Below are positions 31,384 through 46,230 of a DNA stretch of 64,000 nucleotides, piece after piece. The notes below the pieces were generated by a model. The model did no database searches. It was not told the origin of the DNA and was given only the letters and a program-made list of their open reading frames with translations. Each line of letters starts with the position of its first letter. The first letter of the stretch is position 1. The position numbers were made by a program, and so were the translations under genes. This DNA is from an uncultured Isosphaeraceae bacterium. Lineage in GTDB: Bacteria > Planctomycetota > Phycisphaerae > Phycisphaerales > SM1A02. The stretch is taken from contig CAZAZD010000005.1 in NCBI GenBank assembly GCA_964489535.1, forward strand, positions 895 through 64,894. The letters are read 5' to 3'.

Positions 31384-32433
31384 ATGAACGGCAAACTTAT
31401 CGATTTACGCAGCGATACCGTGACCAATCCCACCCAAGCAATGCTTGAAGCAATGACGAAATCGCCCGTTGGCGACGACGTTTGGGGCGACGATCCAACT
31501 GTAAATGCATTACAAGAACGTTGCGCATATATGTTCGGCAAAGAGGACGCTTGCTTTGTTCCCTCTGGAACAATGGCAAACCAGCTTGCTATCCGTGCAC
31601 AAACACAACCCGGCGATGAGATTATCATTCACAGTGAAAGTCATGTGGTGCGGTATGAAGGTGGAGCGGCTGCTGCATTGAGCGGATGTAGTTTCGCTAT
31701 TGCTCAAGGAGAACGAGGTTTTTTCACCTCTGACGATGTGCGAGAACTGTTCCGACCGCAAGATTTTCACTTCGGCCGAAGCCGTCTCGTCTCATTAGAA
31801 AACACACACAACCGAGGTGGTGGCTCAATTTGGCCATTGCAACAATTAGAAGATGTGTGCCAAACTGCCCATGAACTAGGATTAAAAACACACCTCGATG
31901 GAGCAAGGGTTTGGCACGCAATCGTTGAAACCGGCATCGACGCTGCAACGTGGGCAGCGCCCTTCAGCACTATTTCCGCATGTTTTTCTAAGGGTCTTGG
32001 CTGCCCCGCTGGATCAGTTGTCGTTGGCGATTCAACAACTATTCATGAAGTAAGGCGGTTCAGAAAGATGTTTGGTGGAGCAATGCGCCAAACGGGCATC
32101 CTCGCCGGAGCAGCGATGTTCGCCCTTGACAATCAACTTGAACGATTAAAAACCGATCATACCCATGCAAAAATGCTTGCAAAGGGGCTTCAGGTCATTG
32201 AGGGCATTACTTGCGACACAACGAAGATAGACAGCAATCTTGTCTTCTTCGATATCGATAAAATGCTTGGAGACGGCACCGATTTGTGCCGAAAACTGTG
32301 GGAGAACGGAGTTTTAGCTGAAGCACTTGATTCGCAACGGATTCGGTACGTAACACACCTCGATGTTACACAATTAGAAATCGAGCGCGCGATTCAAATA
32401 ACTGCAGACGTTTGTAAACATGTCTCAATGTAA
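31384..32433 (+). CDS. ltaE: Low-specificity L-threonine aldolase
   Basis: IDLRSDTVTNPTQAMLEAM...GDDVWGDDPTVNALQ...FVPSGTMANQLA. The ORF track offers an earlier GTG at 31366. Confidence 0.9.
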   Translation: MNGKLIDLRSDTVTNPTQAMLEAMTKSPVGDDVWGDDPTVNALQERCAYMFGKEDACFVPSGTMANQLAIRAQTQPGDEIIIHSESHVVRYEGGAAAALSGCSFAIAQGERGFFTSDDVRELFRPQDFHFGRSRLVSLENTHNRGGGSIWPLQQLEDVCQTAHELGLKTHLDGARVWHAIVETGIDAATWAAPFSTISACFSKGLGCPAGSVVVGDSTTIHEVRRFRKMFGGAMRQTGILAGAAMFALDNQLERLKTDHTHAKMLAKGLQVIEGITCDTTKIDSNLVFFDIDKMLGDGTDLCRKLWENGVLAEALDSQRIRYVTHLDVTQLEIERAIQITADVCKHVSM

Positions 32434-33277
32434 AGCAATCATTATTGGACTCTCACTCACCGCAATCACGAGCGGCGCTTTTGCGTTTGGGAAAAAATCT
32501 TTTGTATGGAATGACATAAACACGCGCGAGGTTCTTCGTTGGGAAGGCGATACCGCTGTTGTGCAACAAGGAAGCTCCATGCAAGAACTTGCTTGCAGCG
32601 TTACTATCGATCAATCAGAAGTTGATGTCGCAGTTAGTTCTTTTGGTATCCCAAAAACATGGACAACATTCATGTACGCCGATGAGAAGGATCTTGCACG
32701 ACAACAGAAAGAGTTAAAAGTAAAAGCTGCAAAGCACGGCATTAAAATGCTTGAAGAAGGCAATCGATTCACAATAGACTACAACTGGGTCATCAATCAA
32801 AACGAAAGTACGATTACAGAAATTGCAAAGAGGATTCGAAGTACCGCACGAAGAAATGGATACCGTTCAAAACGAGAACTCATCGGGGCTTTTGCATCGT
32901 TTGTGCAATCACTGAAATATCGTGTCCCGCGTGATCATCGAATAAATAGCAAGAATGAAATAATTCTTACTGCAGGTGCAATGATGCCATTGGAAACTTT
33001 ATCCATGGGATGGGGGGACTGTGATTCTAAAAGCATGCTCTTCGCAGCGCTCGTTCAAAGCATCGGTCTTGTCGATGTTTGTTTTATTGTGATGGATGAA
33101 CATTTATTTGCTGCCGTACAATTAAGACACAACCAAGATGACCAATTCATAAAACACAAAGGGAAAGACTGGGTTTTAATCGAACTTACAGATGCTTGGC
33201 CAATCGGCCGACTTCCACAAGACCGTCTTCATGGTGTCATTTTTGGCAACTACACTACAGTTAATCTTGAAAACTGA
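32420..33277 (+). CDS. Secreted hypothetical protein with a possible transglutaminase-like Cys-His-Asp/Glu core
   Basis: Signal peptide. GWGDCDSKSMLFAALVQSIGL...EHLFAAV...WVLIELTD resembles the papain/transglutaminase-fold arrangement. Weak, by-eye call. Confidence 0.35.
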   Translation: MSQCKAIIIGLSLTAITSGAFAFGKKSFVWNDINTREVLRWEGDTAVVQQGSSMQELACSVTIDQSEVDVAVSSFGIPKTWTTFMYADEKDLARQQKELKVKAAKHGIKMLEEGNRFTIDYNWVINQNESTITEIAKRIRSTARRNGYRSKRELIGAFASFVQSLKYRVPRDHRINSKNEIILTAGAMMPLETLSMGWGDCDSKSMLFAALVQSIGLVDVCFIVMDEHLFAAVQLRHNQDDQFIKHKGKDWVLIELTDAWPIGRLPQDRLHGVIFGNYTTVNLEN

Positions 33278-34210: not shown

Positions 34211-35374
34211 ATGAAATTATTACATTACTTCCCAACAACTCGCTTTACTGAAGGCGGAACCGTTCGCGCAGCAATCGATTTCTGTTCCGTTCTAGCGCGC
34301 AGAGGTCACGATGTGACTTGGTTAACATGCGACGATGCCGACGTTCCACAATCATGGAAAGACAACGAGCCAAACACCCCAACGATAGAGTTACTAGGAT
34401 CTCTTCAAAAAACCGGCAAGCGATTAACAAAACAACAAATTGCAAGGGCTGCTGAGGTTGCAAGTGGCATGGACGTAACACATATCCACGCAATGTGGAT
34501 GCCTTCAAATCCACAGATGGCGAAAGCGTGCGACTCTGTAGGAACACCTTGGGTACTCAGCACTCATGGCATGCTTGACGACTGGTGCATGGAACAACGA
34601 GGATTAAAAAAGAAATTCTATCTTTCAACCGCAGGACGTATTTTAATCCGCGGTGCGAATACATTTTTAACAACTGCAGAAGCTGAAAAAAGCCAATCTG
34701 AAAAATGGCTAAAACATGAGAACATTGCTGTTATCCCCTACGTCGTAGATCTTAATCCATACAAAGATGTCCCAAGTCCACAAGAGGCGATCGAAGAGTA
34801 TGGTCTTTCGGAAGAGCCAACTGTGTTGTTCTTAAGTCGTGTCCACGAAAAGAAATCAATCGAAACATTAATTGATGCAACCGCCATCTTAAAAGAACGG
34901 GGATATCCCACACGTGTCTTCATAGCAGGCACTGGAGAAGATTCTTATATCAAATCCCTACAAGATCGAGCTAGCGCTGCTGGAATTAGTGAACAAATAA
35001 CCTTCTTGGGCATGGTTGTTGGCGATTTAAAACTTTCGCTCTACGCAATGGCTGATGTCTTTGCATTGCCAACGCAACAGGAAAACTTTGGGCTCGTCTA
35101 TCCAGAAGCGATGCTCTGCGAGACCCCAGCAATTGGGACCAAGGGAACCGACATCTGGAAGGAATTAGAGGAGGGCGGCGCTGTAATAGCTGACCGAACC
35201 CCAGAAGCGTTTGCTGATGCAATCGAAACGCTAACCTCAGACAAGGAACTCCTCAAAAGAAAAGGCGTCGAAGGTAGAAAACACATTCTTCAATGGTTAG
35301 ATACCGATAGTGTTGCAGAACGGTATGAGGGAATGTACAAAGCCGCCGCTAGCGAACGCTTATTGAAAACGTAA
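34211..35374 (+). CDS. Glycosyltransferase family 4 (GT-B, GT1 clan)
   Basis: TEGGTVRAAIDF N-terminal motif and the C-terminal EX7E region QENFGLVYPEAMLCETPAI. Confidence 0.85.
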   Translation: MKLLHYFPTTRFTEGGTVRAAIDFCSVLARRGHDVTWLTCDDADVPQSWKDNEPNTPTIELLGSLQKTGKRLTKQQIARAAEVASGMDVTHIHAMWMPSNPQMAKACDSVGTPWVLSTHGMLDDWCMEQRGLKKKFYLSTAGRILIRGANTFLTTAEAEKSQSEKWLKHENIAVIPYVVDLNPYKDVPSPQEAIEEYGLSEEPTVLFLSRVHEKKSIETLIDATAILKERGYPTRVFIAGTGEDSYIKSLQDRASAAGISEQITFLGMVVGDLKLSLYAMADVFALPTQQENFGLVYPEAMLCETPAIGTKGTDIWKELEEGGAVIADRTPEAFADAIETLTSDKELLKRKGVEGRKHILQWLDTDSVAERYEGMYKAAASERLLKT

Positions 35375-35747
35375 CTACCCGCGTCGGGGCTGCGTTTTCT
35401 TCCCATGGTCTTTGGTAAGAAAATGTTACTTTTGCATTCCCCTTTTGGTGGGTCATAAGTGTCCATGTTGTTTCACCACCTACACCAACTCGATTGCTTG
35501 CATCGGCTACATATTTGTTTGACTCAACAGAAACGATTGTTCCATTATCAACTGTGCTGTTCCAGGAATAGCCCGTTGTTGGGTTGCTCGGCAGCACAAT
35601 ATGAAATAGGTGATTTTGAGGAAGAACTATTTCTCGATCTGTGTCGGATGTAGTGAGTGGTTTGCTCAATGCATTACTTGCTTCCTTTGAGAACATTGAG
35701 CAGGAAGCAAAGAGTGAGAAACATATAATTGCAATAAGAGTTTTCAT
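35349..35747 (-). CDS. Chagasin-family (I42) cysteine peptidase inhibitor, lipoprotein
   Basis: All three family loops are present: NPTTGYSW, GVGG and RPW. Lipobox LFASCS. Confidence 0.8.
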   Translation of the reverse strand: MKTLIAIICFSLFASCSMFSKEASNALSKPLTTSDTDREIVLPQNHLFHIVLPSNPTTGYSWNSTVDNGTIVSVESNKYVADASNRVGVGGETTWTLMTHQKGNAKVTFSYQRPWEENAAPTRVVTFSISVR

Positions 35748-35771: not shown

Positions 35772-37058
35772 TTACTCGTCACCAGGAACTCGACTTCCGT
35801 GTGGGTCTTTCTTTGCATCCACGAGTGAAGACTGCATCGATGGAGTCGTTATGTGTTCCAATCGCTCTGCGGATTGATGCAGTTGGTGGGTGTCTTGTGG
35901 AAAATGTTTGTCTAAATACACTTCCCACAATCGGTGTGTGCGGACTAAATTTGTCGCTCGAACTCTACCGACATCTGTCAATGACCACCCCGCGGCATCA
36001 CCTGAAATTGCATTCCTTTTTTGCAAACCAAACAACGCAAGTCGAATCATTATTGTCGTTGTACCAATTGCCTCTGACAACTGCACTGGAAGCAACTTCT
36101 GCTGTCCTCGTTCTTCCAACCGCCACAAAACACCAAGAATATCTTCACGAACAACAAGCAGGCGAACTGAAAGCCGATGATATATCTTTGAAATCACTCC
36201 GTGATTCGGCGATGCAACCCACGCTGCCATAAACAAGATGCCTGTTGCAACTGCCATTGCGCCGGCTGTGCTTGTTCCTGAAAAACCAAACCACGTCGGA
36301 ATAGTAATTGCCGAAAGATGTCCAAGGACAGTGGCAACAATCGATAATCCAATTGCAAGCATAAACAGTATGCCGTAGCGATCTGTTAATAAGTACGCAG
36401 TTGCTGGAGGAACAATAAACATCGCAACAACAAGAATGGAACCAACTGTTTCAAATGCTGCAACTGCCGTTGCGGCGGTCATCGTCATCAATACATAATG
36501 CATAAAGGTTGGCTGGATGCCCTGTGACTTTGCAAGTGCAGGATCAAACGACGTAATTTTAAACTCCTTGTAAAAAAGAAGCATGACAACAAGATTTGCC
36601 AGCAACATAACACCGTTGACAATCGCTCCGCGAGGTATTCCAAGTCCATCTGGGTCTTGATCAAACCATGCCAACTCTATGGAGCCATACAAAACACAAT
36701 CTGGGTCAATGTCAACATGGTCTACCGCTTGACGCATCAGCACGAGACCAAATGCAAACAGAACGGTAAACACAATGCCCATCGATGCGCCAACTTCTAC
36801 TTTGCCAAGTGACTGAATTGCTTGCACAAGAAATGCCGTGAGCAATCCAACAACGACAGCGCCTATCAGCATAGCCATGGGATCTCGGCTTCCAGTGATT
36901 AAAAACGCAATTGCAATTCCTGGCAACACTGTGTGACTAATGGCATCCCCCATCAAACTCATTCGACGCAACACCAATATGGTTCCGGGAATTGCACAGC
37001 CAGCGGAGCAGAGTGCACCGATAATGACAATCCAAGTGTCTATGATTGACCACGTCAT
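35772..37058 (-). CDS. Metal ABC transporter permease (ABC-3, TroD/MntD-like) fused to a C-terminal DtxR-like domain
   Basis: ABC-3 polytopic core followed by ...LTDVGRVRATNLVRTHRLWEVYL...HQSAERLEHI...DPHGSRVPG (DtxR dimerisation/metal-site pattern). Confidence 0.85.
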   Translation of the reverse strand: MTWSIIDTWIVIIGALCSAGCAIPGTILVLRRMSLMGDAISHTVLPGIAIAFLITGSRDPMAMLIGAVVVGLLTAFLVQAIQSLGKVEVGASMGIVFTVLFAFGLVLMRQAVDHVDIDPDCVLYGSIELAWFDQDPDGLGIPRGAIVNGVMLLANLVVMLLFYKEFKITSFDPALAKSQGIQPTFMHYVLMTMTAATAVAAFETVGSILVVAMFIVPPATAYLLTDRYGILFMLAIGLSIVATVLGHLSAITIPTWFGFSGTSTAGAMAVATGILFMAAWVASPNHGVISKIYHRLSVRLLVVREDILGVLWRLEERGQQKLLPVQLSEAIGTTTIMIRLALFGLQKRNAISGDAAGWSLTDVGRVRATNLVRTHRLWEVYLDKHFPQDTHQLHQSAERLEHITTPSMQSSLVDAKKDPHGSRVPGDE

Positions 37059-38407
37059 TCGCTTCCACCAATCGGGTGTGGGCTCTTTGGTATTGTCGTT
37101 GCATCAAGTAACGTCTCAAGTTTTGCAACAAGATTTCTTCCAAGCACGTGCTCTATCATGTCAGCGTCTCGGTCAACGTGGGTTGGTGCGATGTCAGCGT
37201 ATGTAATTAAATACATCTCCCATAACCGGTGATTACGAACCACTCTCGATGCTTCTGCTGCACCCTTTTCAGTCAATCGCCACTTATTCGCTGATGCTCG
37301 TGTCGCATAATTGTACTTGCTACAACGCGAAAGTAGATTCGTGACCGACCGTTTACTCCAAGAGCGAACACGGATAACTTCTTCTAATGTAAATTCAGAA
37401 TCGTGCCCACCTTCGCACACCTCCCACATTGCTCGAAGAATATGTTGCATGGCAATCCGCCTCTTTAAACGCAAACGTAAAACTTGGCGAACAAATAGAC
37501 CATCATTTGGTCCCAGAACAAAACTCACTACAAACCAAAATCCGCAAATCAGAACAATAATCGGTCCTGTTGGCATTCGTGGAATAAGTGCGCTGACTAC
37601 TGCTCCAAGCCAACCACTTAAACAACCAATTACCGCTGCTGCGAGTAGCATCGATGTAATTTTTTTTGTCCAGTACCTTGCACACGCTGCGGGAATAATC
37701 AGCATCGCAACTGCAAGCACAAGTCCAACTGATTGCAGAGCAATAACCGTCACAATTGCAACCATTGCCATCAACATGACATCAAGCCAAACCACTGGCC
37801 ATCCCTGCACTGCACCAAACGTTTCATCAAAACAAAGTAGCGTCCATTCTTTGCGAAGCACCATTGTCATGGTTGCGATTGAAAGCGCAGCAACACCCAT
37901 TGCAATGGCATCACTTGCAACCATCGAGGCGGCTTTACCAAATATAAATCCATTCAAACCCGCCGCGCTTCCACTTGGCAATTCGGTCGCGATTCGAAGC
38001 AAGCAAAGCCCCAAACCAAACAATACACTCAGCACGATGCCAATCGCGGCGTCATCTTTTAACCGCGTCGTGTGGCGAATCCCCAGTATTGCAAGAACGC
38101 CAATACAACCAAACACAAACGCACCGAGCAACAATCCCATGAGAGATTTGCCCTCACCGCCAAGTGCCACCATCACCATAAATGAAACGGCAATTCCGGG
38201 AAGAGTTGCATGGCTTAGAGCATCGGCAGTAAGTGCCCGTTTTCTAAGAAGTAAAAACGTTCCAACTAAGCCAGCCGCAATTCCTAGCGCCATAACACCA
38301 AGCACGACAACACGCGTGTTGTAATCTTCGAGCGTAATAACTCGCCAAACTTCTTCAAGGGAAGGCAACGCCATCCGAACATCTGAAATTGAACGGTTCG
38401 CACTCAA
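37055..38407 (-). CDS. Metal ABC transporter permease (ABC-3, TroC/MntC-like) fused to a C-terminal DtxR-like domain
   Basis: ABC-3 core followed by ...LTEKGAAEASRVVRNHRLWEMYL...DRDADMIEHVLG...SPHPIGG. Confidence 0.85.
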   Translation of the reverse strand: MSANRSISDVRMALPSLEEVWRVITLEDYNTRVVVLGVMALGIAAGLVGTFLLLRKRALTADALSHATLPGIAVSFMVMVALGGEGKSLMGLLLGAFVFGCIGVLAILGIRHTTRLKDDAAIGIVLSVLFGLGLCLLRIATELPSGSAAGLNGFIFGKAASMVASDAIAMGVAALSIATMTMVLRKEWTLLCFDETFGAVQGWPVVWLDVMLMAMVAIVTVIALQSVGLVLAVAMLIIPAACARYWTKKITSMLLAAAVIGCLSGWLGAVVSALIPRMPTGPIIVLICGFWFVVSFVLGPNDGLFVRQVLRLRLKRRIAMQHILRAMWEVCEGGHDSEFTLEEVIRVRSWSKRSVTNLLSRCSKYNYATRASANKWRLTEKGAAEASRVVRNHRLWEMYLITYADIAPTHVDRDADMIEHVLGRNLVAKLETLLDATTIPKSPHPIGGSE

Positions 38408-39180
38408 TGGCGCGCCAGCCGTTCCGCTGCTTCAGAGAGTAATGTTAATCGACCGCCGAATGTTTTCTTTAGGTTTTCCTCGGTAAACACTTCGTCAACT
38501 AACCCATGCGCAACAACGCGCATGTTTAACAAGATAACGTGATCAAAATACTCGCGGACAGTCTGCAAGTCGTGGTGTACAGCAACGACGGTCTTCCCAG
38601 ACGAGCGTAAATCCTCAAGCACCTTCACAATTGCTTTTTCAGTCGCAGCATCAACACTTGCAAATGGTTCATCCATAAAGTAAATAGTGGAATCTTGCGC
38701 GAGTGCCCGAGCAAGAAAAACCCGTTGCTGTTGCCCACCAGAGAGTTGACTGATTTGCCGTCGAGCATAGTCTGCCATACCAACACGGTCGAGAGCATCC
38801 ATCGCAACCTGAGAGTCTCGGCGCCGAACTGGTTGGCACCAGCCAATACTGCTGTAACGTCCCATCGAAACAACGCCAAGTGCGTCGATTGGAAAATCCC
38901 AATCCACCGATTCGCGCTGCGGCACATACGCAACCAACTTGCGTTGTTTCTTAAACGGTTTGCCATAGAGCATTACTTTGCCGGATGCCTTTGGCACGAG
39001 ATCCATCACTGCTTTGATAAGCGTGCTTTTCCCTGCGCCATTTGGACCAATAACTGCCACAAGTTTTCCCTCAGGAATATCAAGGTCAACGTCCCAAAGC
39101 ACTGGCTTTCGGTGGTACGCAACGGTTAAATCATGAATTGAAACTGGCGATGTCGGTGAGTGTCCTGCTTCAATCTTCAT
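38404..39180 (-). CDS. Metal ABC transporter ATP-binding protein (ZnuC/MntB/TroB-like)
   Basis: Walker A GPNGAGKST, signature LSGGQQQR and Walker B IYFMDEPF. Confidence 0.9.
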   Translation of the reverse strand: MKIEAGHSPTSPVSIHDLTVAYHRKPVLWDVDLDIPEGKLVAVIGPNGAGKSTLIKAVMDLVPKASGKVMLYGKPFKKQRKLVAYVPQRESVDWDFPIDALGVVSMGRYSSIGWCQPVRRRDSQVAMDALDRVGMADYARRQISQLSGGQQQRVFLARALAQDSTIYFMDEPFASVDAATEKAIVKVLEDLRSSGKTVVAVHHDLQTVREYFDHVILLNMRVVAHGLVDEVFTEENLKKTFGGRLTLLSEAAERLARH

Positions 39181-40114
39181 CGTTCTTGCTCACTGTACAT
39201 TTTGCAAAACCTTCTCCTGTGGAACCCCCAAGGGCATTTGCTATTGTCGTTATGTTGTGATCAAGCATCCCAATATACGTGCCTTTATACGTTCCGGTCT
39301 TTCCCATTGCATCTGAGAATAGACGTCCACCAATAGTTACCGTGTGCCCTTTTGATTTCGCGCCTTCGATGAGCGCGTTCACATTTCTATCTGACACACT
39401 TGACTCAACAAAGACTGCAGTAATTTCTTTATCAACAAGCATGTTGACAAGGCGATTCACATCTTCGATGCCGGCTTCCGACTCGGTGGATAAACCCTGA
39501 ATGCCAACCACTTCGATACCGTAGGCACGTCCAAAATAATTAAACGCATCGTGCGCAGTAATGAGGACGCGTTGCTCTTTTGGTATCGATGCAATCGCTG
39601 CAATCGCGTACGCGTGTAACGTTGCTAATTGCTCGTTGTATTGTTTGGCGTTTGTTTTGTAATCGTCACAATGTTCTTGGTCTTGTTCACAAAGCGCGGT
39701 GGCAACAGCATCGACAGTGCGGCTCCATGCGGAAACATCCATCCACACGTGCGGATCCCAGTGCCCTTCAAATTCGGGAGGTTCGAGTAAGTAGGTTTCT
39801 TCAATAAACTCAGTGACGGGAAAAACAACTTTGCCCATTCTCGCGGCCTTCAAAAACGTGTCTGTCATCCGTCCCTCAAGCAACAAGCCACTGTAAAAAA
39901 TCATATCAGCGTTCATTATTTTTCGTGCATCCGAAGCAGTTGGTTTGTAAAGGTGTGGGTCAACGCCTTCGCCCATCAAAGCAAGAACCTCGCCGTGCTC
40001 GCCAACCACCTGCCGCGTGATGTCCGCAACCATGCCAGTTGTGGCAACGATGTTCAATCCTCCGAAAACGTTTGTAGCGATAAGAATGGCCATAATCGTA
40101 GTTTTTAACAACAT
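39170..40114 (-). CDS. Metal-binding periplasmic solute-binding protein (cluster A-I, ZnuA/MntC/TroA-like)
   Basis: Conserved DPHLY, DPHVW and ITAHDAFNYF motifs. The ATG at 40114 is preceded by AAGGAG. The ORF track starts at 40138. Confidence 0.9.
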   Translation of the reverse strand: MLLKTTIMAILIATNVFGGLNIVATTGMVADITRQVVGEHGEVLALMGEGVDPHLYKPTASDARKIMNADMIFYSGLLLEGRMTDTFLKAARMGKVVFPVTEFIEETYLLEPPEFEGHWDPHVWMDVSAWSRTVDAVATALCEQDQEHCDDYKTNAKQYNEQLATLHAYAIAAIASIPKEQRVLITAHDAFNYFGRAYGIEVVGIQGLSTESEAGIEDVNRLVNMLVDKEITAVFVESSVSDRNVNALIEGAKSKGHTVTIGGRLFSDAMGKTGTYKGTYIGMLDHNITTIANALGGSTGEGFAKCTVSKNDED

Positions 40115-40123
40115 AAAAGACTC

Positions 40124-40141
40124 CTTTTGATTAGTCAAAAG
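40124..40141. promoter_or_regulatory. Inverted repeat in the divergent promoter region (candidate DtxR/MntR operator)
   Basis: CTTTTGA-ttag-TCAAAAG has 7-bp perfect arms. It overlaps the RBS of the binding-protein gene and lies 31 nt upstream of the DtxR-gene ATG. Confidence 0.3.
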
Positions 40142-40171
40142 TTTAATCTATGGTATGCTATAAGTCAAGTC

Positions 40172-40828
40172 ATGCTTTCTAGTACCGTCGAAAACTACCT
40201 TAAAGAGCTCTTTCTGCTCAATCCTCGTAGCGAAAAACAAGTTGCCACAGGCGAACTTGCCAATGCCCTCGATGTAACACCAGGATCAGCAACCTCGATG
40301 ATAAAGACGCTTGCAGAGGCGGGACTCGTCGAGCACCGCCCCCACTACGGCGTAAAGTTGACAAAACAGGGTCGAACACTTGCTGTGCACGTTGTCCGCC
40401 GGCACCGAATCGTCGAATTGTTCCTAGTCAATATACTTGGGATGGATTGGAGCGAGGTGCACGATGAGGCGGAGCAACTTGAACACGTTGTTTCCGATGA
40501 GGTCATTTCTCGGATGGATGATTTGCTAGGGCATCCAAGTCATGACCCACACGGTGATCCGATTCCGACCCCAGATGGAACCCTTCCAACGAGGGCTTTA
40601 CAATTGCTTTCGTTTTGCAATGAGGGCGACAACGTATCAATCGCTCGAATCGGAAACCAGGACGCAGGTTTTCTCAAATTTGCCGAAGAAAACGGACTGT
40701 TACTCGGCAAAACGATCGAAATAGTCAGCCGCAATGACATTGCAGATTCCATCACACTCTGCGCTGAAGGCAACAAAGTTGTACTCGGTCTTGCTGCCGC
40801 AGGAAAAATCGAAGTCGAAACCACATAG
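40172..40828 (+). CDS. DtxR/MntR-family metal-dependent transcriptional regulator with C-terminal FeoA/SH3-like domain
   Basis: VENYLKELFLL..., VRRHRIVELFL, HDEAEQLEHVVSDEV and DPHGDPIP. ATG at 40172. Confidence 0.9.
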   Translation: MLSSTVENYLKELFLLNPRSEKQVATGELANALDVTPGSATSMIKTLAEAGLVEHRPHYGVKLTKQGRTLAVHVVRRHRIVELFLVNILGMDWSEVHDEAEQLEHVVSDEVISRMDDLLGHPSHDPHGDPIPTPDGTLPTRALQLLSFCNEGDNVSIARIGNQDAGFLKFAEENGLLLGKTIEIVSRNDIADSITLCAEGNKVVLGLAAAGKIEVETT

Positions 40829-40974: not shown

Positions 40975-41057
40975 AAAAGCTTCGGGTGTGGCTCTCGAGG
41001 GAATACTTTTTTCTGGTCTGTACGCATTGCCCTTGCTCGTCCTGTACCCTAGTAAAT

Positions 41058-41999
41058 ATGAAACGATTCGCGCTCATTTCCCTCGTTGCGATTTGCTTGT
41101 ACGGTTGCGGAAACCCGCCCAACCCACCAGCCCAACAAGTCAAAAAACAAACCGGCAAGGAAATCTACTTGATGTACTGCGCCATGTGCCACGGCGCATC
41201 CGGAGACGGCAAGGGCACCATCACGCTCGATAGACCCGCGCGAAGTTTTATTGATGGTGGATTCTCGTTTGGTAATACCGTGCGCGCAATCTCAAAAACT
41301 ACTCGCTCTGGTATTCCTGGAACACCAATGCCACCATTTGCAGACGTTCTCAATGCAGAACAAACAAAGAAAGTCGCCACATACGTTCGGTCCCTCTCTC
41401 CAACTGTCGAAGACGCCGCCATCGAAGAAACTGAGATGGTCGTCAAAGAACGACCACTCGTTGCCCGTGGCATGATTCCACCAGTTCAAGAGGGAATGCA
41501 ACTACATCCTCGCGGAGTTGTCATAGGCAATCCCGATGGTTTTAGTTACGAGTACCGAGCAGATGACGTCCGTCTGCTTGCAATCAGGCAGGGTCGATTT
41601 GTTGAAAGAGCTGATTGGGGTGCGCGAGGCGGCTCACCACTGACCATACTTGGAAAAGTAATAGTACTTGTTGTTGGCGGAGACCCTCCCCCACTATTCT
41701 GGACTATGGACCACAAACCACTTCGAGCACAACTTACGGCAACAAATACCCAAGGTAAATACGCCACTATTTCGTACGTCCTCATTGATAACAATGGCGA
41801 GAAATATGCAACTGTCGATGACCGATGCAAAACGACAACACTCGCAAGAGCGCTCATCGAACAACAGTTTACGATTAACGCAAAAATACCATTCCAGATT
41901 CGAATCCTGCAAGGAACTGGCATGAGCGACTCTACCTATGTTCCTATCGGCAAATCAACGCGAACACTCATTCACGCAATGCGGGAGTTCACACAATGA
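41058..41999 (+). CDS. Cytochrome c-domain lipoprotein
   Basis: The ATG at 41058 gives MKRFALISLVAICLYGCG (lipobox). CAMCHG heme-binding site. Its stop overlaps the next gene's start. Confidence 0.7.
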   Translation: MKRFALISLVAICLYGCGNPPNPPAQQVKKQTGKEIYLMYCAMCHGASGDGKGTITLDRPARSFIDGGFSFGNTVRAISKTTRSGIPGTPMPPFADVLNAEQTKKVATYVRSLSPTVEDAAIEETEMVVKERPLVARGMIPPVQEGMQLHPRGVVIGNPDGFSYEYRADDVRLLAIRQGRFVERADWGARGGSPLTILGKVIVLVVGGDPPPLFWTMDHKPLRAQLTATNTQGKYATISYVLIDNNGEKYATVDDRCKTTTLARALIEQQFTINAKIPFQIRILQGTGMSDSTYVPIGKSTRTLIHAMREFTQ

Positions 42000-44344
42000 T
42001 TGAACTCCTATCTATTATTGCACTCGCTCAAACAACACAACCAGATTACTGGGCTGTTGATTATCTCGACCCACCAACAGGCGCTGTGCTTGAAGTTGGC
42101 GGCATTGGTTTTATGTCTGATGGCTCTCTTGTTGCAAGCACAAGGCGTGGACAAGTTTGGCGCATCGATACTCCAAACGCATCCAACCCCGAAGACGCAA
42201 CATTCACTTTAATCTGTGAAGGGCTCCACGAAGGACTTGGACTTTCGGTCATCGACGATGAAATTTTTGTCATGCAACGGGGTGAGATTTCAAAACTCAT
42301 TGACCTCGATGGCGACACCATCATTGACGAGGTGCAAACCATTACCCAAGAATGGGGCATGAGTGGAAACTACCACGAGTTTGGTTTTGGACTTCCAGTT
42401 GACAGAGATGGCAACATGTATTTTTCATTGAACGTTGGTTTTTGGAACCCACACTGGTGGCATGGAAAATCACGCGCACCCTATCGCGGCTGGGTATTAA
42501 AACTTGCCCCCAACGGAACAGTCACTCCAATTGCGGGCGGTCTTCGGTCGCCTGCAGGTTTAGGGCTTTTAGATGACGGAACATTACTTGTCACCGACAA
42601 CCAAGGCGACTGGATGGCAGTTTGTCCTGTGTACGCAATTAAGGAAGGTGCGTTTTACGGACACCCTGCATCACTTCGGTGGTATGAGGACCAACCAAGC
42701 ATAGAACCAAGCGATACACTTCCGCACCCCGAAGTTGAGCGAGAACATCCAGTTCTGTGGCTTCCATATCAGTGGTCGCGCTCAACAGGCAACATTATCC
42801 AAGACAACACAAATGGACCATTCAACGGGCAATACTTGCTTGCTGAGCTTACCAACGGACAAATACTGCGCGCCAACTTTGAAGAAGTTGACGGCGTCTT
42901 GCAAGGTGCTTGCTGGCTTGCACACCAACGAATTGGATCTGCATACCACATTGAGTACGGACCAGATGACACACTCTATGTTGGCATGACAAATCGCGGC
43001 TGGGGTGGACTTGCACCCGGAAGCGGCATCGCAAGAATCAAATACAACGGCGAACTGCCTCTTGAAATGTCGAGTGCGCATCTTGTTAAAGATGGTTTTG
43101 AAATCACGTTTACAAAACCCCTTGCAAGTGCGCCAACCATCACAGGAAACAAATACGACTACAATTATTGGTGGGAGTATGGTTCGCCGCAACAACACGT
43201 CGAGGACCTACAGATTTCGAATGTTATTCTTTCAAAAGATGGATTGTCTGCAAAAGTAACTATTGATAATCTTGAATCTGGCAAGTGCGTTATGGTCAAA
43301 CTTGAAAATGCCGTGAGTACTGACGGAGCGTTGCTTCTGCACAACGAAATGTCCTACACCATCAACAAACTTCCCGGCGGTGAACTTGTGTACGTTGCAA
43401 AACAAGTTGAACCACCCATAGAACGTGGCGAAGAAGTCGATGGATGGCTTTACCTCACGTGGGCAGATGCAACTGATGTATGGAACAATAACGGTGTAGA
43501 AATTTGTAACGCAGAATTAGATATAGACAACCCAACTCAATTCGTAATTACAGACGGCATGGGTGCACTCGTTGCAAGCGAGGGCGAATCCATGGCAACC
43601 AAGTTTGATCTTGTCGAAGGCGAGTTGCTGATTTCATATATGCTCGCGCAAGAAAGTGAAGCAGAAATAAAACTTCCAATCGGAATTTCTATTGTTTTTT
43701 CAAACAAACAACGCGGCGGATACCTTGGGGCTGGAATATGGCACAAGGCAGTCATCAAGTTCCAAGAAACTCCAGCTAAGATCACACTTGTTGAAGTGAA
43801 CGGCGTGCATACAGAAGTTGACATGATGACGTACAGTGGAATCGTCAAGCCATCTCCACTTGAAATCAAATGCATAACGGGAAACTTTGCAATTGGTGAT
43901 GTTCGGTTTAGAACTCCTCTTAATGAACTCGGCAACGAGTGGCAACCATTACAACCCGACGGCGAGTCTCTCATTCTTGAAGACACCAAAACAGGAACCA
44001 TCTCAATATCCAACACAAAGTATTCCGCAATTAGATTCGATACCAAATTTTCTGGCTCTGGAAATGCAGTCATTCAAATTGGCGAACTAGAAGTGTTTGT
44101 CGCAACAGAAGGCGACCAAAAAACTGGCTCCATCACTGCGCACGCCATCAAAGCAAATCTCGTCGATCAAAATGAATGGTGCACAATAGTAATCCATCAA
44201 GAAGACGAAAAAAACGAAACCGTTGTCTATCTCAACGATGTGCCGATTTTAACTGTTGACGATGCGCCCTCTATTCAGACCGACGCAGTCAAAATAAGCG
44301 TTGACAACGCCAAACTTACTTTGCGGCGGACATATATAAAGTGA
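41996..44344 (+). CDS. Beta-propeller (glucose/sorbosone dehydrogenase-like) protein with C-terminal beta-sandwich domains
   Basis: The N-terminal half resembles the SGL/GSDH-type propeller (GLGLSVIDDEIFVMQRGEISKLIDLDGD, LLVTDNQGDW). Translationally coupled to the cytochrome c gene. By-eye call. Confidence 0.55.
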   Translation: MIELLSIIALAQTTQPDYWAVDYLDPPTGAVLEVGGIGFMSDGSLVASTRRGQVWRIDTPNASNPEDATFTLICEGLHEGLGLSVIDDEIFVMQRGEISKLIDLDGDTIIDEVQTITQEWGMSGNYHEFGFGLPVDRDGNMYFSLNVGFWNPHWWHGKSRAPYRGWVLKLAPNGTVTPIAGGLRSPAGLGLLDDGTLLVTDNQGDWMAVCPVYAIKEGAFYGHPASLRWYEDQPSIEPSDTLPHPEVEREHPVLWLPYQWSRSTGNIIQDNTNGPFNGQYLLAELTNGQILRANFEEVDGVLQGACWLAHQRIGSAYHIEYGPDDTLYVGMTNRGWGGLAPGSGIARIKYNGELPLEMSSAHLVKDGFEITFTKPLASAPTITGNKYDYNYWWEYGSPQQHVEDLQISNVILSKDGLSAKVTIDNLESGKCVMVKLENAVSTDGALLLHNEMSYTINKLPGGELVYVAKQVEPPIERGEEVDGWLYLTWADATDVWNNNGVEICNAELDIDNPTQFVITDGMGALVASEGESMATKFDLVEGELLISYMLAQESEAEIKLPIGISIVFSNKQRGGYLGAGIWHKAVIKFQETPAKITLVEVNGVHTEVDMMTYSGIVKPSPLEIKCITGNFAIGDVRFRTPLNELGNEWQPLQPDGESLILEDTKTGTISISNTKYSAIRFDTKFSGSGNAVIQIGELEVFVATEGDQKTGSITAHAIKANLVDQNEWCTIVIHQEDEKNETVVYLNDVPILTVDDAPSIQTDAVKISVDNAKLTLRRTYIK

Positions 44345-44507: not shown

Positions 44508-46184
44508 TCAGTTACACAATCCCCATGCGTCGACGATTGCAAGAAGGTCGCCAACACCAACGCTGCCGTCGCCATTGATGTCGCCACTGCATCCATTGCA
44601 TGCGCCCCATTGATCGACAACCGAGAGCAAGTCCGCAACGCCAACGTTACCGTCGCCGTCAAGATCACCCGCACAACTTGAACCATCGTCCACTGCGTCG
44701 AGTGCTGCTTTTGCATTAACAAAACCGTGCCCGAACGTTGTGTCGTACCCACCGCTTCCGTAGTCAACCGCCGTTGAAGAAAGCACGACTTCTAATTCCT
44801 CAGGTGTGAGTGATGGGTCAACCGAAAGCACAAGTGCCGCAACACCTGCCGTGTACGGCGAGGCAAAAGAAGTTCCATCAATCGTTGTTGTGTTACCGCT
44901 GCCATACCCATCACCACCACTTCTGTCGGTTGTACGAATTGATTCGCCGGGGGCGCTAATAAACAAACCATTTCCGTGGGTACTAAAACTAGCAAGCGTG
45001 CCATTGGAGGACATCGCAGCAACGGATATTAAACTATCCAAGTTGCCCGGCCATCCAATTGTTGTTGAGCCATCGTTGCCTGCTGCTGCAACGTGAAATA
45101 CACCCGCAGCGCGTGTTGCATTAAATGCGTTTGTTATTCCTGAAAGAGGCGAACCACCACCCCAACTCGAATTTGTCACACGCGCGCCTGAATCCGCTGC
45201 CCATGTTATGCCATTGACTGCCCAGCTTTCTTGGAATTCAAGGAAGCCAAGACAAAAACCAAAAATGTCCATCTCGTTAAAAATCTTTCCTGCACGAACC
45301 CAACAGTGTGGCGCAACTCCTGCAACACCTTGGCTATTATCTATTGTTGCAGCAACGCAACCAGAGACAGCGGTGCCATGATTATCACAAGCATTGCTTG
45401 GATGACCGTTACTACTGCTTCCTGTAAATGTTTCTCCAGTTAACTGATGTATGTCAGGATGATTTTGGTCAATACCTGAATCAAGTACAACAACAACAAT
45501 GTCTTCGCTGCCCATGGAAATATCCCACGCTTCGGGAAGGTCCATGTCGTGATTGTTGGACTGATGTAATCCCCATTGTTGGCCAAATTCAGGATCGTTT
45601 GGCATGTGCGCCGGCTTCACCCAAGCAATTGCATCGCTTTCCGCAAACGCAAACATATCCATAGCAGCGAGTTCGTTTGCAAGATCCAACACATCTCGCC
45701 CATCCCGCAACATTGTACGCACTCGATAGACGCGTTCCATTCCCGCAAAATCACTGTCAAGAATTTCACCATGACTACGCAGTAATGTTTCAAATACACC
45801 TTGATCACTTACGGAGGTTCGCATCACGAGTAGATCGCGAGTTGGGATGTAGGGCAATCCGCCCTCTCCAAGAAAAACAGGCGACACAAAATCGTACGTT
45901 GGGTCGAGTGTCAGTTCGTCAACAACGCGCTCAATCGCTTGGAGCGTTTGCATCTTTTGCGTTGTCTTCACATACGCCCAACCGTGCACCGAACTTTCGG
46001 AAAACGCACTGTGGTTTCCTTTTGCAAAATAGGGTACTTCGATTGCTTCTTCTTCATCGAACACAGCAATCATTGAAACATCAACCGTTAATTCAATCGT
46101 TGTTTTGAAGTGCGAGTATGAAAATTGCGATTCTTGGGGTGCGCCAGCAAGTAGCACCGACAAAAGTGTAATGAGTTGTAACAT
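44508..46184 (-). CDS. Secreted subtilisin-like serine protease (S8) with two C-terminal dockerin-like repeats
   Basis: Catalytic triad contexts VVVLDSGID, HGTAVSG and GTSFASPY. The ATG at 46184 is preceded by AGGAGA. The tail is DLDGDGNVGVADLLSVVDQWGAC / DINGDGSVGVGDLLAIVDAWGLC. Confidence 0.9.
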   Translation of the reverse strand: MLQLITLLSVLLAGAPQESQFSYSHFKTTIELTVDVSMIAVFDEEEAIEVPYFAKGNHSAFSESSVHGWAYVKTTQKMQTLQAIERVVDELTLDPTYDFVSPVFLGEGGLPYIPTRDLLVMRTSVSDQGVFETLLRSHGEILDSDFAGMERVYRVRTMLRDGRDVLDLANELAAMDMFAFAESDAIAWVKPAHMPNDPEFGQQWGLHQSNNHDMDLPEAWDISMGSEDIVVVVLDSGIDQNHPDIHQLTGETFTGSSSNGHPSNACDNHGTAVSGCVAATIDNSQGVAGVAPHCWVRAGKIFNEMDIFGFCLGFLEFQESWAVNGITWAADSGARVTNSSWGGGSPLSGITNAFNATRAAGVFHVAAAGNDGSTTIGWPGNLDSLISVAAMSSNGTLASFSTHGNGLFISAPGESIRTTDRSGGDGYGSGNTTTIDGTSFASPYTAGVAALVLSVDPSLTPEELEVVLSSTAVDYGSGGYDTTFGHGFVNAKAALDAVDDGSSCAGDLDGDGNVGVADLLSVVDQWGACNGCSGDINGDGSVGVGDLLAIVDAWGLCN

Positions 46185-46230
46185 CCTATTTCTCCTATTT
46201 GTTAGAACCACATTATTCCAAATCTACTTG

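Follow-up and report, generated by a model that had tools for sequence, protein, structure and literature searches.

A Tro/Ytg-type metal importer of a planctomycete with DtxR-family modules on both permeases and a free TroR-like regulator

The ATP-binding cassette (ABC) importer described here is encoded on a stretch of 64,000 nucleotides from an uncultured Isosphaeraceae bacterium (assembly GCA_964489535.1, contig CAZAZD010000005.1, positions 895 to 64,894 of the forward strand), which is called the window throughout. A four-gene operon on the minus strand encodes, in this order, a substrate-binding protein, an ATPase, permease A and permease B, and its open reading frames (ORFs) lie at the coordinates given by a first-pass annotation of the same DNA. 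Both permeases continue beyond their transmembrane domains into a C-terminal tail related to the DtxR family of metal-dependent regulators, and a third, free-standing member of this family is encoded divergently. The sequence thus describes an importer with three putative DtxR-family metal sensors. Its features are the following, in window coordinates.

39170..40114, minus strand: substrate-binding protein, TroA-like; 314 amino acids from ATG 40114; Pfam ZnuA (PF01297), 257.7 bits
38404..39180, minus strand: ABC ATPase; 258 amino acids; Pfam ABC_tran (PF00005), 101.4 bits
37055..38407, minus strand: permease A (TroC/YtgC position); 450 amino acids from TTG 38407
37517..38314, minus strand: ABC-3 domain of permease A, residues 32-297; PF00950, 190.8 bits
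37058..37510, minus strand: tail of permease A, residues 300-450; short helical linker, winged helix-turn-helix and DtxR-type metal-binding/dimerisation domain
35772..37058, minus strand: permease B (TroD/YtgD position); 428 amino acids
36222..37028, minus strand: ABC-3 domain of permease B, residues 11-279; PF00950, 158.6 bits
35775..36212, minus strand: tail of permease B, residues 283-428; helical linker, winged helix-turn-helix and DtxR-type metal-binding/dimerisation domain, with DPHG at the end
40172..40828, plus strand: free TroR-like DtxR-family regulator with a C-terminal FeoA/SH3-like domain; 218 amino acids from ATG 40172
40124..40141, no strand: putative TroR-type operator, palindrome CTTTTGA-TTAG-TCAAAAG, read from the sequence
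40140..40168, minus strand: promoter-like site of the operon, -35 TTGACT (40168-40163) and -10 TAAACT (40145-40140), from a consensus scan

Public gene calls for identical DNA on two marine metagenome scaffolds agree with this layout except at the start of permease A, which they place at ATG 38374, giving 439 amino acids; a protein 100% identical to permease A is present in public collections. For the binding protein the ORF list uses a TTG at 40138, and the public calls give the 314 amino acids that start at ATG 40114, seven nucleotides downstream of an AAGGAG. The 218 amino acids of the free regulator are found in the public calls as well. The start of permease B overlaps the stop of permease A by 4 nucleotides. 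The binding-protein gene and the regulator gene are divergent and 57 base pairs (bp) apart, and with the likely start codons at 40114 and 40172 the intergenic region is 40115-40171, where the first-pass annotation had also placed it.

The assignment of the locus to the Tro/Ytg type of divalent-metal importers (ABC-3, cluster A-I) is well supported. The binding protein matches TroA of Treponema pallidum (1toa/1k0f) with 245 bits, the next solved protein reaching at most 147 bits, and the TroA ligands H68, H133, H199 and D279 are all identical in it. The transmembrane domains of the permeases are closest to PsaC (7kyo/7kyp, 112 bits) and ZnuB (9oko), while the best NCBIfam matches of the ATPase are manganese/iron ABC ATPases, none of them at the curated cut-off. 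Scores were obtained for AztC (zinc; 224 against a cut-off of 350), EfaA (manganese/iron; 173) and the manganese/iron ATPase (230 against 393). As no NCBIfam equivalog cut-off was reached, the transported metal is left as manganese, iron or zinc; the TroA-type site of three His and one Asp does not discriminate between metals.

Several lines of evidence converge on the tails, and it is well supported that both permeases end in a complete two-domain DtxR-family module lacking the SH3 domain. The DtxR-like part of each tail comprises about 130 residues. The Pfam family Fe_dep_repr_C (PF02742, threshold 27 bits) matches residues 379-436 of permease A with 54.2 bits and residues 361-425 of permease B with 46.6 bits. 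In phmmer searches of the PDB the alignments of both tails to ScaR, SloR, MtsR, DtxR, IdeR and DR2539 take in winged helix and dimerisation domain alike, beginning at regulator residue 2-9 and reaching to about 132; the alignment of the B tail to 5zr4 covers residues 2-132 (E 3.5e-12). AlphaFold2 models of the tails (mean predicted local distance difference test, pLDDT, 82 for A and 81 for B) show three helices and two strands, which form a two-stranded wing, followed by a long fourth helix, and the winged-helix part reaches pLDDT values of 84-97. The 50 best Foldseek matches of these models are almost all DtxR-family chains with probability 1.0, including DtxR, DR2539, SloR and IdeR for the B tail, and the B winged helix superposes on MntR with a root-mean-square deviation of 1.9 Å over 81 columns. 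Global deviations are high because the loop that carries the last ligands is modelled at low confidence. Neither tail has an SH3/FeoA domain.

The first-pass annotation had read the extensions by eye as DtxR-like with a winged helix, and Pfam, phmmer against the PDB, AlphaFold2 and Foldseek bear this out: PF02742 scores above its threshold and a winged helix is predicted in both. Its helix motif needed a correction, to R(N/T)HRLWE(M/V)YL. Among the Pfam families that it had named, ABC-3 and Fe_dep_repr_C are found in both permeases and FeoA in the free regulator, but Fe_dep_repress occurs only in the free regulator.

The residues that bind metal in DtxR have counterparts in all three proteins. 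They were compared in an alignment with DtxR and Bacillus subtilis MntR, whose reference sequences were checked for known ligand residues at the expected numbers. At positions 10/79/83/98/102/105/106, where DtxR itself has M10/H79/E83/H98/C102/E105/H106, permease A has H/H/E/D/D/E/H, permease B D/H/E/H/E/E/H and the free regulator N/H/E/H/E/E/H. The conservation of H79, E83, E105 and H106 in the three proteins, and Asp (A) or Glu (B and the free regulator) at position 102, are thus as first reported, and in the A and B tails all seven positions hold metal-binding residue types.

Relatives were collected by scanning one genome per GTDB species with two peptide patterns of the A tail, which gave at least 450 relatives; 80 loci, with no Chlamydiota among them, were annotated by phmmer with the window proteins as queries. 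The A-tail ligands H322/H393/E397/D412/D416/E419/H420 are invariant in 81 sequences except for the first, which is His in 78 of the 81. Six of the B-tail ligands are invariant in 31 sequences, and E102 is kept in 22 of these. W82 and Y85 (DtxR numbering) are common to both tail families (31/31 B tails against 0/28 free regulators); the free regulators carry I or V and F at these places, and the pair is also absent from the PDB members in the alignments. Together with the low nonsynonymous divergence of their metal/dimerisation domain (given below), the ligand conservation suggests that the tails are functional metal binders.

Gene order is identical in all 80 loci. Permease A is fused in every one of them, partly by construction, since the search patterns sit in the A tail. 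Permease B carries a tail in 30 of the 80 and none in about 44, almost all of these from Verrucomicrobiota; the other six could not be assigned (contig ends or a split gene). The double fusions comprise 24 loci from Planctomycetota (labelled Phycisphaerae, Gimesia, Rhodopirellula, Pirellulaceae and Planctomycetales), one each from Kiritimatiellae, Lentisphaeria, Sumerlaeota and a genome labelled only 'bacterium', and two with Verrucomicrobia labels. Against the 24 double fusions stands one clear exception among the loci labelled Planctomycetota. The double fusion is therefore widespread and the usual state in this phylum, not special to this genome; what the first-pass annotation had singled out as unusual is real but common. 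Its placement of the organism in the Planctomycetes-Verrucomicrobia-Chlamydiae (PVC) superphylum agrees with the closest homologues, which are labelled Phycisphaerae or Planctomycetota, and its suggestion that the fusion is old there fits the presence of fusions in Planctomycetota, Verrucomicrobiota, Kiritimatiellae and Lentisphaeria.

Single permease-repressor fusions have been reported in 11 phyla (PMC5599777). A literature search, which did not cover that survey itself, found no paper on the double fusion or characterising it. While the single fusion is already known, the literature searched appears to contain no description of the double fusion, of its occurrence together with a TroR-like regulator and box, or of how it is distributed among phyla.

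A neighbour-joining tree of the transmembrane domains, midpoint-rooted and without support values, places the single-fusion Verrucomicrobiota in one derived clade and the double-fusion loci in a basal grade, which hints that the B tail was lost in Verrucomicrobiota and that the single fusion may be the derived state. Profiles of the A and B tails score only 50-60 bits against each other, compared with 160-190 bits against themselves, and by such cross-scores A tails, B tails and free regulators are three old, distinct families. The B family is the more DtxR-like of the two tail families, and the scores fit both a B tail that arose when the A tail was duplicated and one captured separately from a TroR-like gene. 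Searching 1.84 billion cluster representatives with the B tail (phmmer) yielded 313 matches at E<=1e-10; the best 150 of these all lie at the C-terminal end of their targets, and 50 are full-length fused permeases. Stand-alone B-type tails were considered as well, as the B-tail representatives include eleven short ORFs whose initial Met falls on the domain boundary, and were rejected. The only one that was examined (P0272, L084 693-1184) is a fused permease split by a frameshift at a run of eight T around 717-724, and so provides no evidence for free B-type proteins.

The free regulator matches Fe_dep_repress (48.1 bits), Fe_dep_repr_C (112.9 bits) and FeoA (42.3 bits) in Pfam, which agrees with the third regulator with a FeoA-like tail of the first-pass annotation; the NCBIfam Thermus-type MntR model gives 191 bits, with a cut-off of 350. 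The intergenic region carries a single palindrome, CTTTTGATTAGTCAAAAG, at 40124-40141, which overlaps two signals of the binding-protein gene, its ribosome-binding site AAGGAG and the -10-like hexamer. This is the same motif as that of the published TroR operators, which are ATTTTGATATATCAAAAT in T. denticola, with AGGAG directly after it, and ACTTTGATGCATCAAAAT in T. pallidum (PMC2628430). An automated inverted-repeat search of the intergenic region returned nothing; the 7-bp arms were seen by eye and confirmed by pattern search, and exact TTTGA-N4-TCAAA occurs once in the window, at the operator. The promoter-like site is a pattern match only, in a region that has 7 such sites where 5.8 are expected, i.e., no excess.

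In 35 of 72 related loci, exact TTGA-N4-TCAA occurs no more than 400 bp upstream of the gene for the binding protein, with about 0.4 matches expected by chance in these 28.8 kb, and the remaining approximately 890 kb contain ten matches. A version with a 6-nucleotide spacer was found upstream of no binding-protein gene, and it is the 4-nucleotide spacer that matches. The palindrome accompanies the FeoA-type free regulator in 21 of 27 loci, the other six being one-mismatch or edge cases, and is present in none of the 13 double-fusion loci without such a regulator, which carry TGTAGC-N4-GCTACA instead. In six single-fusion Verrucomicrobiota loci without the FeoA-type regulator (L012, L017, L032, L043, L061, L080) the motif is TTAGC-N4-GCTAA. 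Because of this co-occurrence, the operator type is considered to follow the free regulator and not the tails, and the free TroR-like protein is the likely reader of the TroR box.

Further motifs and ORFs were observed at these promoters. TGTAGC-N4-GCTACA stands before the operon in L019, L025, L029, L034, L049, L053, L054, L060, L065 and L079, in single- and double-fusion lineages of several phyla. TTAGC-N4-GCTAA resembles the DtxR/IdeR box, and the loci that carry it include Roseibacillus and Akkermansiaceae. Divergent ORFs of 140-210 amino acids in L020, L053, L054, L069, L071, L079 and L080 match the free regulator weakly (26-54 bits) and may be DtxR/MntR-like regulators of another kind, lacking the FeoA domain. 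In the window itself, inspection by eye shows TATAAG 7 nucleotides before the regulator start ATG 40172 (40159-40174) and no ribosome-binding site, which suggests a leaderless transcript; its -35 region would overlap the TroR box, suggesting autoregulation.

The closest system overall is TroABCD-TroR of Treponema, which the first-pass annotation had not named. The binding protein is by far closest to TroA of T. pallidum and has identical ligands. The palindrome TTTGA-N4-TCAAA is shared and stands directly before the ribosome-binding site, as in T. denticola, whose TroR combines a DtxR core with an SH3-like domain like the free regulator here. In Treponema, however, troR is described as a gene of its own that closes the operon (troABCDR), while the regulator described here is divergent and upstream; TroC and TroD are unfused, whereas both permeases here carry DtxR-like tails.

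YtgABCD of Chlamydia trachomatis, which the first-pass annotation had named as the characterised precedent for the fusion, has its genes in the same order, with binding protein and ATPase followed by the two permeases. Both systems have a TroA-like binding protein (YtgA in Chlamydia), and both hosts belong to the PVC superphylum. The first permease, YtgCR, bears a C-terminal TroR/DtxR-like domain with conserved metal ligands; the likeness was established from the published description rather than from the CT069 sequence (PMC5599777). In Chlamydia the TroR-like C-terminus of YtgC is cleaved off and represses the ytg promoter; full-length YtgC also repressed in E. coli, and repressors anchored in the membrane can work according to the same source (PMC5599777). 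The fusion is hard to study genetically in this organism, and the protease and the trigger of the cleavage are unidentified (PMC5599777). The locus described here differs in that the second permease is tailed too, by a distinct tail family, and in having a free TroR-like regulator with its own operator. Cleavage and DNA binding have been shown for YtgR, whereas the tails here are known from their sequence. The single-fusion state described for YtgC/YtgD is that of the about 44 mostly verrucomicrobial loci.

With DtxR, IdeR, MntR and the ScaR-SloR-MtsR group the tails share the two-domain fold and the ligands H79, E83, E105 and H106. Asp or Glu at DtxR positions 10 and 102 is linked to manganese selectivity in this family, and the B tail has such residues at both positions, like the manganese-type members. 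Its DPH motif aligns with the CPH of ScaR, residues C123 and H125, which are metal ligands in ScaR. The tails differ from these regulators in being fused to a membrane protein, in lacking the SH3 domain, in carrying W82/Y85 and in their poorly conserved recognition helices; the A tail in addition has the unusual ligand set H10, D98 and D102. The transmembrane domains align over their full length with Streptococcus pneumoniae PsaBC (7kyo/7kyp) and with ZnuBC (9oko), at 112 bits to PsaC. The solved permease chains, by contrast, have 260-290 residues and the match ends near PsaC residue 270, leaving no room for a regulatory domain. In MetNI and ModBC, a C-terminal ligand-binding regulatory domain is attached to the importer ATPase; it is present twice per complex, can dimerise and binds the transported substrate. 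The likeness to a C-terminal regulatory domain on an importer subunit, two per complex, is a functional analogy only. The extra domains here sit on the membrane subunits and have the fold of a DNA-binding protein, and the ATPase is a plain 258-residue ABC_tran protein.

A mechanism in three steps is proposed. Quite probably, the metal-loaded free TroR-like regulator would bind the single TroR-box palindrome and shut off transcription of the operon, since the box overlaps the -10 and the ribosome-binding site. The two tails would act as metal sensors physically coupled to the transporter, lying side by side in double-fusion lineages and probably paired via their dimerisation domains. The tails might then be released by proteolysis and bind DNA as an extra co-repressor, whose specificity would be looser than that of the free regulator or would differ from it and whose supply would be coupled to transporter synthesis; this last step is put forward tentatively, at somewhat below even chances. 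Release by cleavage and action on DNA is ranked first because of the YtgCR precedent. As a whole, this co-repressor mechanism is the best explanation at hand, and its prospects are about evenly balanced; DNA binding, cleavage, pairing of A with B and the identity of the metal are what we infer.

Several observations weigh against an action of released tails on DNA. The Pfam DNA-binding-domain model PF01325 has no match in either tail at E<0.1. In the AlphaFold2 models a single uninterrupted helix of about 31 residues spans the linker and the first DtxR helix, and this junction does not look like an exposed protease site. In the 13 genomes with all three proteins, the mean pairwise identity of the helix-turn-helix is 0.34 in A and 0.25 in B and reaches 0.60 in the free regulator, while that of the metal/dimerisation domain is 0.73 (A), 0.53 (B) and 0.70 (free). 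Nonsynonymous divergence (dN) in the five closest genomes amounts to 0.47 (A) and 0.42 (B) for the winged helix against 0.14 in the free regulator, so that the DNA-reading helices of the tails evolve about 3-4 times faster; for the metal/dimerisation domain it is 0.10 (A) and 0.20 (B), and for the transmembrane domain 0.07-0.10. Only contrasts of dN were used because synonymous sites are saturated (synonymous divergence, dS, 1.2-2.1; some pairs not computable). Across the three operator types the recognition helix of the A tail keeps the same appearance, hence it probably does not read the operator of its promoter, and that of the B tail conserves no polar residue.

Thirteen Verrucomicrobiales loci have the same operator; in these, identity over the first turn of the recognition helix is 85% for the free regulator and 49% for the A tail, and over the dimerisation domain it is 83% for both. 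The name 'repressor domain', used in the first-pass annotation, fits the family, but the palindrome co-occurs with the free regulator and the recognition helices of the tails vary. Nevertheless, the winged helix of the tails is not decaying: it is folded confidently, basic and under purifying selection. The recognition helices have a net positive charge (+2.3 in A, +3.1 in B), R-S-W-S before the A recognition helix is near-invariant, and dN/dS of the winged helix is about 0.2-0.4, i.e., below 1, with dS saturated. Taken together, the sequences suggest that the DNA-reading surface of the tails is under a weaker and different constraint.

The tails might instead stay attached and act as an in-place brake on transport (trans-inhibition), a possibility that is considered clearly less probable than even. 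When cytoplasmic metal rises, its binding would close the modules and promote A-B pairing under the membrane, which would pull on the last transmembrane helices and lock the transporter, leaving transcription to the free TroR-like regulator. Such a brake would fit the ligands and dimerisation domain, whose conservation equals that of the transmembrane domain whereas the DNA-reading surface drifts, and the operator, which follows the free regulator and not the tails. The first DtxR helix bears a ligand (H322 in A, D in B) and is predicted to continue from the end of the transmembrane domain through a short, conserved linker. Both subunits of the heterodimeric transporter are tailed, providing a built-in 1:1 pair, and W82/Y85 are common to both tail families and missing from the free regulators. 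We know of no precedent for a DtxR-family domain regulating transport, and a brake leaves the retained, basic winged helix under purifying selection unexplained. Permease A alone is tailed in Verrucomicrobiota and, by published accounts, in Chlamydia, which makes pairing within one transporter impossible; moreover, the Chlamydia orthologue is cleaved and binds DNA (PMC5599777). If the brake were nevertheless correct, which seems doubtful, the tails of this lineage would not be transcription factors but a heterodimeric, transporter-resident sensor that shuts the pump within seconds of a rise in cytoplasmic metal; the free TroR-like protein would take care of transcription, and the YtgR repressor of Chlamydia would have arisen secondarily, by re-use once the free regulator had been lost. 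In that case an ABC importer would have gained its allosteric gate from a metalloregulator with a DNA-binding fold.

Attached tails could also pair as an A-B heterodimer that binds DNA at the membrane. Alternatively, they could dimerise with the free regulator, in which case the amount of active repressor would depend on the state of the transporter, as in Mlc-PtsG or MalT-MalK. In favour of this, a DtxR-type dimerisation domain with a common ligand pattern is retained in all three proteins, the recognition helices of the tails are strongly basic, and the literature notes both the repression by full-length YtgC in E. coli and that repressors anchored in the membrane can work (PMC5599777). Pairwise identity among the three dimerisation domains is, however, only 30-35%, and W82/Y85 of the tails correspond to I or V and F in the free regulator, so that a mixed interface is not obviously compatible; many tailed loci, furthermore, have no such free regulator nearby. 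Tethered or mixed-dimer binding is accordingly regarded as improbable. Least probable is that the tails are decaying remnants of an old gene fusion, kept only for folding or assembly of the permeases and without a role in sensing. The fast evolution of the winged helix, the loss of the B tail without replacement in the Verrucomicrobiota clade and the presence of a free regulator would agree with this; the seven ligand positions, by contrast, show little or no variation in 81 A and 31 B tails from several phyla, dN of the metal domain is as low as that of the transmembrane domain, and dN/dS of the winged helix is still below 1.

Other genes surround the locus. A gene for a chagasin-family (I42) peptidase-inhibitor lipoprotein (35349-35747, minus strand) starts 24 nucleotides downstream of permease B on the same strand; it was considered as a part of the system, with a link to tail cleavage, and rejected, its position being conserved only in the five closest loci (L001-L005). 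Adjoining the regulator gene, 40986-44344 (plus strand) encodes a cytochrome c protein and a 782-residue protein with a weak match to glucose/sorbosone dehydrogenases, an arrangement kept in L002, L003, L005 and L006. At 44508-46211 (minus strand) lies a subtilase (Peptidase_S8) with two C-terminal repeats of the form D-x-D/N-G-D-G-x-V-G-V-x-D-L-L, which are dockerin- or EF-hand-like. An ORF of 285 codons at 32420-33277 (plus strand), located between a beta-eliminating lyase gene and a sulfotransferase gene, encodes a protein with a signal-peptide-like N-terminus and no Pfam match.

Experimental knowledge of permease-repressor fusions has so far come from one system, Chlamydia YtgCR, while operons of this type are widespread among free-living members of the PVC superphylum. 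Those of Planctomycetota, Kiritimatiellae and Lentisphaeria usually carry the double fusion, often together with a TroR-like regulator and a recognisable TroR box. Some of the loci belong to named genera or strains, such as Gimesia and Rhodopirellula sp. SWK7, the record of which is not labelled as a metagenome-assembled genome, and such strains could allow cleavage, DNA binding and control of transport to be separated experimentally. The combination of invariant metal sites with fast-evolving DNA-reading helices raises the question of whether the fused regulator is a transcription factor, a transport brake or both, and the single and double fusions with and without a free regulator form a natural set of genotypes in which it may be addressed.

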